IMG/VR virus record: IMGVR_UViG_3300050343_000159
Source: a virus
Lineage: Duplodnaviria > Caudoviricetes
Strand: one strand, 5' to 3'
DNA length: 64,000 bases
Part shown: piece by piece, positions 30,516 through 63,256 of the stretch
Position numbering within the stretch: position 1 is the stretch's first letter
How the letters are laid out: every line of letters begins with the position of its first letter
Notes under the pieces: model-generated
The model's database searches: none
The model's input: the letters and a program-made list of their open reading frames with translations, nothing else
What the model was told of the DNA's origin: nothing
Translations under genes and position numbers: made by a program

Positions 30516-30588
30516 GGGTCAGTAGCTCAGTGGATAGAGCATCGCACTTCTAATGCGTTGGTCGGGGGTTCGAGTCCCTCCTGACCCG
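30516..30588 (+). tRNA. tRNA-Arg(TCT)
   Basis: Cloverleaf, AGCTCAG D-arm, TTCGAGTCC T-loop, CT-TCT-AA anticodon loop. Confidence 0.9.
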
Positions 30589-30592
30589 CCTC

Positions 30593-30666
30593 GCGGAATT
30601 AGTTTAGAGGCAAAACTAAAGGTTTCCAACCTTTCGTCACCGGTTCGATTCCGGTATTCCGCTCCA
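30593..30666 (+). tRNA. tRNA-Gly(TCC) with encoded CCA
   Basis: GCGGAAT/ATTCCGC acceptor stem, TT-TCC-AA loop, TTCGATTCC. Confidence 0.9.
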
Positions 30667-30667
30667 A

Positions 30668-30739
30668 TCCTCTATAGCTCAGTTGGTAGAGCTCGTGACT
30701 GTTAATTTCGCTGTCCTAGGTTCGAGTCCTAGTGGGGAG
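30668..30739 (+). tRNA. tRNA-Asn(GTT)
   Basis: TCCTCTA acceptor, CT-GTT-AA loop, GGTTCGAGTCC; weak anticodon stem may reflect sequence error. Confidence 0.85.
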
Positions 30740-30742
30740 TTA

Positions 30743-30814
30743 GCTCGAATAGCTCAGCGGTAGAGCACCTCCTTTACACGGAGATTGTCGGGGGTTCGAT
30801 CCCCTCTTCGAGCA
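30743..30814 (+). tRNA. tRNA-Val(TAC)
   Basis: GCTCGAA/TTCGAGC acceptor, TT-TAC-AC loop, GTTCGATCCC. Confidence 0.9.
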
Positions 30815-52860: not shown

Positions 52861-53197
52861 AGGTAAAATGTTGAAGTATGAAATGGAATCTCATCTTTAT
52901 AGGTTAAAGAATGAACTACACAGTAGGTCAGGAGTTGTGTGAATCTAAAGGTCTAGCTGATGAGTATCTCAATAGGGTCTTAGATAAACTTCAAGAGTTT
53001 AGATACTAAGCTAAGCCCAACCTTTATCGGTAACAAACCTATTGTAGTCAAAACCAATACCCTTGTTAAGTACCAGTTCTCTAAGTGGAACACCAACTTA
53101 ACAGGGGTATTTCTTTGTGGTATGATAACAGGGTAAACAAAACTTTACATAAATAAACCAGTTACTTGTGTTGGTTTCAACATAAGTGTTTATACTT

Positions 53198-53308
53198 ACT
53201 CCCCTTAAACCAAGACCTATAGGGAGTCTAAAAACGTCTTTAATACCTGTATCTAAGGGTGATACAGGAATAGTAAAACCATCATTTCCCTGATGATCTT
53301 ACTTTTAA
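53198..53308 (+). ncRNA. PhotoRC-II-like cis-regulatory RNA in the psbA 5' UTR
   Basis: Hairpins CCTGTATC/GATACAGG and CATCA/TGATG directly before psbA; matches my recollection of the cyanophage psbA leader motif. Confidence 0.65.
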
Positions 53309-62080: not shown

Positions 62081-62313
62081 TGCAATCAGTAATCTATTCG
62101 AATAAAAGTCAAGAGTGTGAGAGAGCTATCATGCTTCTTTCAAATGTCCATGAAGATTTTCATGAGTATATTCTAGATGAAGACTTTACTGACAAACAAT
62201 TTCATGCAGAGTTCGGTGATACAGCAGAGTATCCACAGATTTCTATTGGGCTGAAACACAGAGGTGGATTGAAAGAAACCCTTCAGTTCATGAAAGATAA
62301 CAATATGTTCTAA
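62062..62313 (+). CDS. Glutaredoxin-like protein lacking CxxC
   Basis: YSN.SQECER, FG..AEYPQI.IG..H.GG. Confidence 0.65.
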   Translation: METEGLMQSVIYSNKSQECERAIMLLSNVHEDFHEYILDEDFTDKQFHAEFGDTAEYPQISIGLKHRGGLKETLQFMKDNNMF

Positions 62314-62315
62314 CC

Positions 62316-62345
62316 TTGACATAAATAGTGTAGAAGTGTTATAAT
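62316..62345 (+). promoter_or_regulatory. Overlapping early and late promoters for the riboswitch locus
   Basis: TTGACA 62316-21; TAAATA 62322-27; TG-n-TATAAT 62340-45. Confidence 0.75.
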
Positions 62346-62353
62346 AACACTGT

Positions 62354-62398
62354 CGTTCATCAGAGGTAACTCTGACGCAAGTAAGTTGACTCGGAACG
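62354..62398 (+). ncRNA. Glutamine riboswitch-like aptamer 1 (glnA/Downstream-peptide class)
   Basis: P1 CGTTC/GAACG; P2 TCAGAG-GTAA-CTCTGA; CGCAAGTAAG junction; upstream of a DUF4278-like gene. Confidence 0.7.
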
Positions 62399-62401
62399 GA
62401 G

Positions 62402-62583
62402 CGTTCATCCTATGGTTGATTTCTTTTTATATACAACACTCAGTTGTTCTGATGCCGATAGCATTATGCTACGGATGAGGAGTAATGATGATCTTAACGC
62501 TCAAGTTAGGATTGAATTGGTGGAGGTTCTAAAAGAATCTACACCAGAGTGTCCATGGGACGCAAAAGGCAACTGAAGGAACG
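62402..62583 (+). ncRNA. Glutamine riboswitch-like aptamer 2, split around an ORF
   Basis: CGTTCA-TCCTATGG (62402-15) ... CCATGGGA-CGCAAAAGGCAACTGAAG-GAACG (62553-83). Confidence 0.6.
62412..62576 (+). CDS. 54-aa ORF nested in aptamer 2 (not in the ORF track)
   Basis: MVDFFLYTTLSCSDADSIMLRMRSNDDLNAQVRIELVEVLKESTPECPWDAKGN*; GGAG 62398-62401. Confidence 0.65.
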   Translation: MVDFFLYTTLSCSDADSIMLRMRSNDDLNAQVRIELVEVLKESTPECPWDAKGN

Positions 62584-62617
62584 GGGCCTAAAAATCCAAC
62601 TACTTCAGGAGTATCAA

Positions 62618-62752
62618 ATGAAAGTCACGTATCGTGGTGTGTCGTATGACACAGTTGAGTATCAGAACAGACCCCAAGTTACCAAAAAAGTAACTGAAGT
62701 CTATCGTGGTATCAATCACACCGAAACTGTAAAAGTGGAGGTATCAAAATGA
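62618..62752 (+). CDS. DUF4278-like small protein
   Basis: MKVTYRGVSYD...VYRGINH; AGGAG SD at 62607-62611. Confidence 0.75.
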   Translation: MKVTYRGVSYDTVEYQNRPQVTKKVTEVYRGINHTETVKVEVSK

Positions 62753-62856
62753 ATATACTTGCCATCGAGCAAAGAAAGATTCTCAAGAAAAAAGCTATCA
62801 AGGTAGCTCAACTTGAGTTGACTAAGAAAACACTTGTTTGTTCTAACAACAAGTGA
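62749..62856 (+). CDS. 35-aa basic peptide
   Basis: MNILAIEQRKILKKKAIKVAQLELTKK...; ATGA overlap; terminator at 62866-62888 follows. Confidence 0.5.
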   Translation: MNILAIEQRKILKKKAIKVAQLELTKKTLVCSNNK

Positions 62857-63022
62857 TATAATTAAGGGAGGTAATACTCCCTTTTTTTAATGGAAAAAGA
62901 TAAACTCAAACTAATAACCAGAAACCTAAGACTGTTGGTAGATGCGCTGGAGTCTGAAGTTTATTCTGATGTAAAGGCTTATACTGAACGAATGGAAGAG
63001 ACACTTCCTCCTCTCCCAGATT

Positions 63023-63256
63023 ATGATGAGGTATTTGAAGATGATGAATGATTGGAGATACACCGATGAAAGAATGAAACTAAGGGGTGTTTGCTTATCG
63101 ATTCTTCTAAATAAGTATGGTGGAGCAAGGATTGAAGAAGCCTCCTACTCAACCAAAGATATTTACGAATGCGTTGATACCTGGGTCAGTCAAGGGAATA
63201 AAATCTCTCATGGTATCGAACCTTACTTTAAGACTTATTTTTCTAACACCACTTAA
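63023..63256 (+). CDS. Hypothetical protein
   Basis: 77-aa ORF, DWRY..ERMKLR..CL..LL.KYG. Confidence 0.55.
   Translation: MMRYLKMMNDWRYTDERMKLRGVCLSILLNKYGGARIEEASYSTKDIYECVDTWVSQGNKISHGIEPYFKTYFSNTT

Follow-up and report, generated by a model that had tools for sequence, protein, structure and literature searches.

Covariation among related phage loci shows, at the level of sequence, that positions 62354-62584 of the window (the whole stretch of DNA analysed, 64,000 nucleotides in length) constitute one composite glutamine-riboswitch domain and not two separate aptamers. The window derives from a T4-like cyanomyophage, and its relatives are Synechococcus and Prochlorococcus myophages. About 290 related phage loci served as the comparison set for the long-range pairings. 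This comparison supports a nested architecture with an outer P1 (62354-58/62579-83), a P1a hairpin (62360-75) and a P2 helix (62384-90/62568-74), and inside P2 an inner hairpin (62394-98/62402-06) followed by a long-range stem (62408-15/62553-60) that closes around a gene. The explanation which we favor as a whole, and hold to be reasonably probable, combines the composite domain with strand-swapped glutamine cores, reciprocal ON/OFF control and unfolding of the RNA by ribosomes. The features of the locus are as follows.

62316-62345, + strand: sigma-70-type promoter TTGACA-N18-TATAAT with upstream TG, 12/12 matches
62320-62327, + strand: late-type box CATAAATA, overlapping the -35 element of the sigma-70-type promoter
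62336-62350, + strand: palindrome GTGTTAT-A-ATAACAC around the -10 box, its arms covarying among relatives
62354-62358, + strand: outer P1 5' strand CGUUC ("a"), invariant, partner in the nested fold 62579-83
62360-62375, + strand: P1a hairpin UCAGAG-GUAA-CUCUGA, from the Rfam alignment, covarying in relatives
62376-62383, + strand: joining strand CGCAAGUA, with CGC as in glutamine-II and AGUA as loop-E strand
62384-62390, + strand: P2 5' strand AGUUGAC, partner 62568-74
62394-62406, + strand: inner hairpin GAACG-GAG-CGUUC ("a-prime" and "b")
62398-62401, + strand: GGAG, Shine-Dalgarno sequence (SD) of the nested ORF, G62399 being the invariant first linker base
62408-62415, + strand: inner long-range stem 5' strand UCCUAUGG, holding the AUG (62412-14)
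62412-62576, + strand: nested gene, 54 aa, phrog_504 (E = 1e-24)
62553-62560, + strand: inner long-range stem 3' strand CCAUGGGA, encoding Pro-Trp and the start of Asp
62561-62567, + strand: second joining strand CGCAAAA, conserved in relatives at all three codon positions
62568-62574, + strand: P2 3' strand GGCAACU, its last U being the first base of the stop codon
62575-62578, + strand: GAAG (loop-E strand), from Rfam alignments of compact relatives
62579-62583, + strand: outer P1 3' strand GAACG ("b-prime"), followed by G62584 as in glutamine-II
62603-62611, + strand: CUUCAG (62603-08), possible partner of CUGAAG (62573-78), covarying and present in the minimum free energy (MFE) fold
62618-62752, + strand: DUF4278 gene, 44 aa (PF14105, 28.7 bits; phrog_5049)
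62749-62856, + strand: basic ORF of 35 aa, its start overlapping the DUF4278 stop (ATGA)
62864-62890, + strand: intrinsic terminator 3' of the 35-aa ORF, recognized at 62864-83

Two units and one fold

A preliminary description of this DNA had recognized most of the parts. Unit 1 has the elements of a compact aptamer, namely CGUUC 62354-58, the hairpin 62360-75, CGCAAGUA and GAACG 62394-98, and the architecture indeed restarts 3 nt further on, after the linker GAG, with CGUUCA (62402-07) and UCCUAUGG (62408-15). The far partner of this second unit, CCAUGGGA at 62553-60 followed by CGCAAAAGGCAACUGAAG and the GAACG of 62579-83, lies about 140 nt downstream, and the stem thus formed has eight pairs, one of them U-G, and contains the AUG. 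The SD of the nested ORF abuts P1 of unit 1 in that GGAG shares the last G of the first GAACG. Unit 1 is without a 3' P2 strand and without GAAG, and unit 2 is without AGUA and without a 5' P2 strand. As to the traits of the glutamine-I family RF01739, P1 with an unpaired A (A62359) and the P1a hairpin are present, and the sequence also provides AAGUA (62379-83) and GAAG (62575-78) as flanks of a long-range P2, as well as candidate linchpin pairs, characteristic of glutamine-I and -II, between C62378 and G62584 and between C62563 and G62399; the G 3' of each GAACG is invariant in all loci. About 30% of the relatives carry AAAG in place of the consensus GAAG. The H-type pseudoknot of RF01704 (glutamine-II), with GGAACGG in a local P2 hairpin loop and a score of at least 33 bits, was not found.

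The family models see only part of this element. Unit 1 matches RF01739 with 29.4 bits (E = 3e-4 in a 701-base search), so that the window element, represented by unit 1 alone, stays below the gathering score of 35 bits, and Rfam at gathering threshold returned no glutamine riboswitch from the whole window. RF01704, for which the test score is 33 bits, found no match in the window at E up to 10; relatives score 23-36 bits against this model, with many non-canonical P2 pairs. A covariance model built from compact relatives (R1), run with filters off, likewise recovered unit 1 only, with 24.9 bits, and the expectation that covariance models would miss the split part was borne out for both Rfam and R1. 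Since such models cannot span the insert of ~140 nt, natural compact relatives were used as an insert-free control. In these, only RF01739 matches that span both units exceed the gathering score, with 46.4 (L106), 46.2 (L195) and 40.2 bits (L125), single units reaching no more than 25-34 bits. The best RF01739 alignment of L106 joins the 5' part of unit 1 to ACUGAAGGAACG of unit 2 and treats everything between them as an insert in P2.

Three long-range pairings covary across the related loci, involving the AUG-bearing stem, a P2 between unit 1 and unit 2, and a hairpin made of P1 strands from both units. In P2, the five-base strand that follows CGCAAGUA forms all five pairs with the strand that precedes [G/A]AAGGAACG in 262 of 265 loci; compensatory changes are found at four of the five positions, and none of 5000 shuffles reached the observed pairing, a result whose significance is overstated because related sequences are not independent. 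The usual form is AGUCG/CGACU, next to which AGUCA/UGACU, AAUCG/CGAUU, AUUCG/CGAAU, AGUCU/AGACU and AGACU/AGUCU occur, and the window itself carries a compensatory form, AGUUG 62384-88 with CAACU 62570-74, which can be extended to seven pairs with one mismatch. In the inner hairpin, CAACG is found only ever with CGUUG (12 loci in three backgrounds), and the outer strands of these loci still read CGUUC and GAACG. This natural double change flips exactly the equivalent of the C5:G36 pair of glutamine-II, which is among the few varying pairs of that aptamer (PMC6698751). Covariation of the long-range stem, which the preliminary description had proposed to look for across phages, is seen as exchanges between C-G and U-A at positions 3 and 4, rarely with A-U or G-C; position 4 is paired in 132 of 147 distinct units, compared with 98 +/- 3 when partners are shuffled, a contrast subject to the same dependence among sequences. 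The first five pairs of this stem are general, and pairs 6-8 are confined to the subgroup of the window. RNAalifold, applied to 27 compact relatives, returned the nested fold.

The earlier reading of the locus as tandem aptamers thus holds in part. It is a glutamine-riboswitch-like RNA whose second unit closes around a whole, real ORF, but the units are not independent neighbors, given that their P2 strands pair with each other. As the outer P1 strands never vary, the outer P1 pairing rests on topology and on the covariation of the inner hairpin. L314 and L208 each have a single split unit, lacking both unit 1 and a P2 partner, which indicates that the composite is not obligatory; in these two loci, the former a close relative of the window, the gene-bearing unit directly follows the upstream gene or a promoter hairpin. 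A pseudoknotted alternative is disfavored but may form as a transient state, and folding across an actively translated ORF of 165 nt may be rare in vivo.

Genes within the hairpin loops

Judged by its codon periodicity and fixed placement, the nested ORF is a real gene. Its 54 codons fill the loop as originally described and end with UGA (62574-76) in the 3' half of the aptamer. The entropy of interior codons at positions 1, 2 and 3 is 1.10, 0.61 and 1.47; in the last five codons none of the three positions varies, which points to an RNA constraint on top of the coding sequence. The protein has homologues in 36 clusters, with two invariant Cys, and is predicted by AlphaFold2 to form a plain two-helix hairpin (pLDDT 74); an Atlas search with it found only its own unnamed clusters. 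The ORF region is common to 354 phage records and is annotated as a hypothetical protein ("gp197").

The position of the coding sequence relative to the RNA elements is highly regular. An ATG is present in all 153 split units examined, in 150 of them at offset +4 or +5 of the stem 5' strand, and the ORFs, of 49-79 codons, stop at two fixed offsets: those in the downstream position 10 nt past the C of CGCAA, with the protein ending ...W-D-A-N-D-stop, and those in the upstream position within the stem 3' strand. The first base of the linker that follows the inner GAACG is G throughout, and the linker reads GAG, giving GGAG, in 71 of 81 ORF-bearing versus 5 of 35 compact units (Fisher p = 3e-14; loci not selected on the linker). 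By this association, the nested gene has its SD in the loop of the inner hairpin and its AUG within the stem.

The P1a loop can also hold a gene, as it does in 37 related loci among the matches listed (e.g., L008, L010, L012, L020). These genes belong to phrog_6471 and two other families, encode 60-79 aa with two Cys, and have their ATG in the stem and their stop codon in its 3' strand, where stop codon and stem covary (UCUUAUG/CAUAAGA, UCCUAUG/AUAGGA, UCUCAUG/CAUGAGA). An SD upstream of these first-hairpin ORFs was sought in the relatives and mostly not found.

The inter-unit junction occurs in at least 120 viral-contig loci, and four more scans that constrained only the 3' half added ~170 further loci. 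Among the matches listed, the first set comprises 76 elements that are compact plus split like that of the window, 37 with ORFs in both hairpins and one that is fully compact; later scans contributed 27 distinct compact-compact elements. A scan of genome contigs for the double unit gave 17 loci, of which the genuine ones are found on contigs, phage-sized or short, from single-amplified genomes or mis-binned metagenome-assembled genomes, so that no clear host-chromosome copy is seen; the remaining matches were dismissed as chance, e.g., in Flavobacterium repeat proteins. The phage element is also present on three contigs (L295, L305, L309; 188-194 kb) listed as Synechococcus, Nonlabens and Prochlorococcus, which are probably whole cyanomyophage genomes that were binned or assembled with cells.

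Transcription, the downstream genes and a candidate mechanism

Upstream of the domain, overlapping early and late promoters are recognizable, as had been suggested: the sigma-70-type promoter matches at 12 of 12 positions, and the CATAAATA box lies over its -35. In 220 related upstream regions, a similar -35/-10 spacing is found in ~60% and a TAAATA box in ~45%. The palindrome around the -10 box, of 6-10 bp, keeps the same position just 5' of the riboswitch across L001-L292, with arms such as GGTCTAT/ATAGACC, GCATATG/CATATGC and TGTGATG/CATCACA. It looks like the 5'-end hairpin of transcripts that would start from the upstream late-type TAAATA box, and transcripts from the sigma-70-type promoter would be without it. 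Many related loci also have a palindrome TGTA-N8-TACA, resembling an NtcA box, just upstream of the -35, e.g., ~45-60 nt upstream of CGUUCA in L119, L012 and L008, which hints at nitrogen control of transcription too; it is absent from the window, where a glutaredoxin-like gene ends at 62313.

In RNA libraries, one contig (X17) spans 62281-62906, and in one run the depth over 62384-62896 was 5-10x that of the flanks; contigs can neither show transcript ends nor exclude DNA. A contig joint from 62409 to 62559, with a side of 26 letters, was considered as RNA processing and rejected, as it most likely stems from a compact relative instead.

The DUF4278-like gene, the basic peptide gene and the terminator follow in the order originally given. 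The DUF4278 gene exceeds the PF14105 gathering cut-off (28.7 versus 25.3 bits). The 35-aa ORF is kept with conservative changes in L311, L313 and L314; no family match was obtained for it, and BLASTP against the downstream gene of SynMITS9220M01 found nothing. Directly 3' of the terminator, an acidic ORF of 53 aa (62890-63051) belongs to phrog_878 and is conserved in S-SKS1. Elsewhere in the window, a PhotoRC-II RNA is located at 53187-53281 (Rfam, 71.1 bits) and four tRNA genes are clustered at 30516-30814.

Between the domain and the DUF4278 gene, CUUCAG (62603-08) overlaps the SD of this gene, AGGAG (62607-11), and its possible partner CUGAAG (62573-78) reaches from the P2 end across the stop codon of the nested gene into GAAG. 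In the resulting anti-SD helix, the middle base of the stop codon covaries with its counterpart among relatives: where it is A it faces U (29/29) and never C, and where it is G it faces C or U. The MFE fold of 62352-62625 (-79.4 kcal/mol) consists of a self-closed unit 1 together with the anti-SD helix. Glutamine riboswitches act as ON switches which free an occluded ribosome site (PMC6212724), and the predicted MFE fold with its occluded DUF4278 SD fits this published behavior.

The geometry of the locus suggests how glutamine and translation might be read together. The occurrence of CGC and GAACG-G in both units leads us to infer two strand-swapped glutamine-binding cores that share P2, an outer one resembling glutamine-I and an inner, permuted one resembling glutamine-II. 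Glutamine would stabilize the composite fold, which would keep CUGAAG in the aptamer and leave the DUF4278 SD free (ON), and at the same time would sequester the start signals of the nested gene, the SD in the inner hairpin and the AUG within the stem (OFF). When no glutamine is present, pairing would shift to that of the first CGUUC with the GAACG close to it and to that of CUGAAG with CUUCAG, the latter covering the downstream SD. Ribosomes on the nested gene would unzip the stem, P2 and P1, as a consequence of which translation and sensing are proposed to be mutually exclusive, and a ribosome terminating at the UGA would also open the anti-SD helix, such that the DUF4278 gene could be coupled to the nested gene. 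It is this geometry that suggests a reciprocal control by glutamine and an unfolding by ribosomes. The hypothetical ribosome-coupled gate of the preliminary description is indirectly backed by the association of the SD-type linker with an ORF and by the covarying anti-SD helix, which includes the nested stop codon.

Alternative readings and known systems

Three other readings have to be weighed against this explanation. That the locus holds two side-by-side aptamers, with P1 helices at 62354-58/62394-98 and 62402-06/62579-83 and the second aptamer wrapping the ORF, appears quite unlikely to us. Each unit does possess the glutamine-II ligand-core set of CGUUCA, hairpin, ACGCA and GGAACGG, Rfam and R1 detect unit 1 alone, the MFE fold closes unit 1 on itself, and side-by-side pairing is the sole one possible in the single split units of L314 and L208; taken by itself, however, each unit has an incomplete loop-E and an incomplete P2, and the covarying inter-unit P2 would go unexplained unless a double pseudoknot formed. 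Moreover, the natural change to CAACG and CGUUG keeps the inter-unit hairpin and would mismatch and break both side-by-side P1 helices, and constrained folding of 62352-62625 gives -71.4 kcal/mol for this arrangement compared with -73.4 kcal/mol for the composite, itself 6 above the MFE. Still less credible, and in our judgment very improbable, is a conserved, structured leader RNA which has lost its glutamine sensing and serves another ligand, protein binding or RNA stability only. The single units below the Rfam gathering score, the CGC instead of the glutamine-I consensus CGG and the change of GAAG to AAAG in many relatives would agree with such a loss, yet CGC goes together with a matching G behind GAACG, the very combination of validated glutamine-II aptamers, compact relatives exceed the RF01739 threshold, and the downstream DUF4278 gene is the usual partner of glutamine riboswitches.

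The most serious competitor, unlikely in our view, accepts the composite and regards the nested gene as a passenger in a tolerant loop, co-transcribed only, whose translation gives no regulatory input and whose stems merely let the aptamer re-form. Peripheral loops of riboswitches often tolerate inserts, and here compact and ORF-bearing forms can stand in for each other at two places in the loops, with at least four unrelated small-protein families in the loops. A mere passenger does not account for the fixed geometry of start and stop codons described above, for the SD-type linker in the inter-unit hairpin loop that tracks the presence of an ORF, for a stop codon lying inside the aptamer/anti-SD switching strand and covarying with the anti-SD helix, or for the last five codons being frozen at the RNA level.

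The composite combines traits of both known glutamine riboswitch classes. With glutamine-I (glnA RNA, RF01739) it shares P1 CGUUC/GAACG with the unpaired A and the P1a hairpin, the ACGNAAGUA joining strand, P2, the GAAG strand, the place upstream of a DUF4278 gene and, as proposed here, ON-type control by freeing of a ribosome site. The phage element departs from glutamine-I in that its P2 is a long-range helix instead of a hairpin, with another P1-like hairpin, another stem and an entire gene occupying the P2 "loop". It has CGC...GAACG-G where glutamine-I has CGG...GAACG-C, and its single units remain below the gathering score. From glutamine-II (Downstream-peptide motif, RF01704) are known the core of CGUUCA, hairpin, CGCA and GGAACGG, the C:G linchpin and an aptamer overlapped by coding sequence. 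The ligand site of that class consists of the CGUUC/GAACG helix, the CGC strand and a linchpin from C to the G after GAACG, and its crystal form is a strand-swapped dimer with hybrid pseudoknot helices (PMC6698751), which resembles the swapped pairing proposed for the phage element. In glutamine-II, the aptamer, an H-type pseudoknot of ~60 nt, takes in no more than the start of the regulated gene, whereas the phage element is a nested fold of 230 nt with a complete, separate gene inside. For tandem glutamine riboswitches, 157 doublets and 4 triplets have been counted, their units being regarded as independent and pseudo-cooperative (PMC9481103), and the compact relatives found here probably belong to this published count. 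The arrangement of two glutamine-type units head to tail is common to both; in the phage element, by contrast, a single P2 serves both units, P1 strands are swapped between them, and genes may occupy one loop or both.

ORFs within sensing leaders are familiar from the mgtA Mg2+ leader with its mgtL ORF and from classical attenuators, in which ribosome and ligand together set the fold. Unlike these short sensor peptides, the nested ORF encodes a conserved protein family of 49-79 aa, and it is enclosed by the helices of the aptamer itself. No description of a gene inside a glutamine aptamer, or of a shared P2, was found in the searchable literature, which is not proof of absence, and one paper has called riboswitches rare in phages.

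Riboswitch aptamers are usually viewed as compact, non-coding elements upstream of the gene that they control. Here, covariation shows that helices of the aptamer enclose 150-230 nt of translated sequence, and the same design is found in hundreds of genomes of marine phages, with genes in a single loop or in both. Tentatively, and with somewhat more doubt than confidence, we picture a strand-swapped double glutamine aptamer of cyanomyophages whose hairpin loops serve as gene slots and in which ribosomes and glutamine compete for the same 230 nt, such that high glutamine would turn phrog_504 off and DUF4278 on, and translation of the nested gene would erase the sensor and couple the downstream gene. 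If true, this would be a naturally occurring RNA that is read by a metabolite sensor as well as by a ribosome, a strand-swapped double aptamer and a riboswitch that reciprocally splits its output between the gene inside it and the gene after it. It would also explain why standard covariance-model scans under-count phage riboswitches, and it would tie phrog_504, a very common cyanophage family, to nitrogen status during infection.
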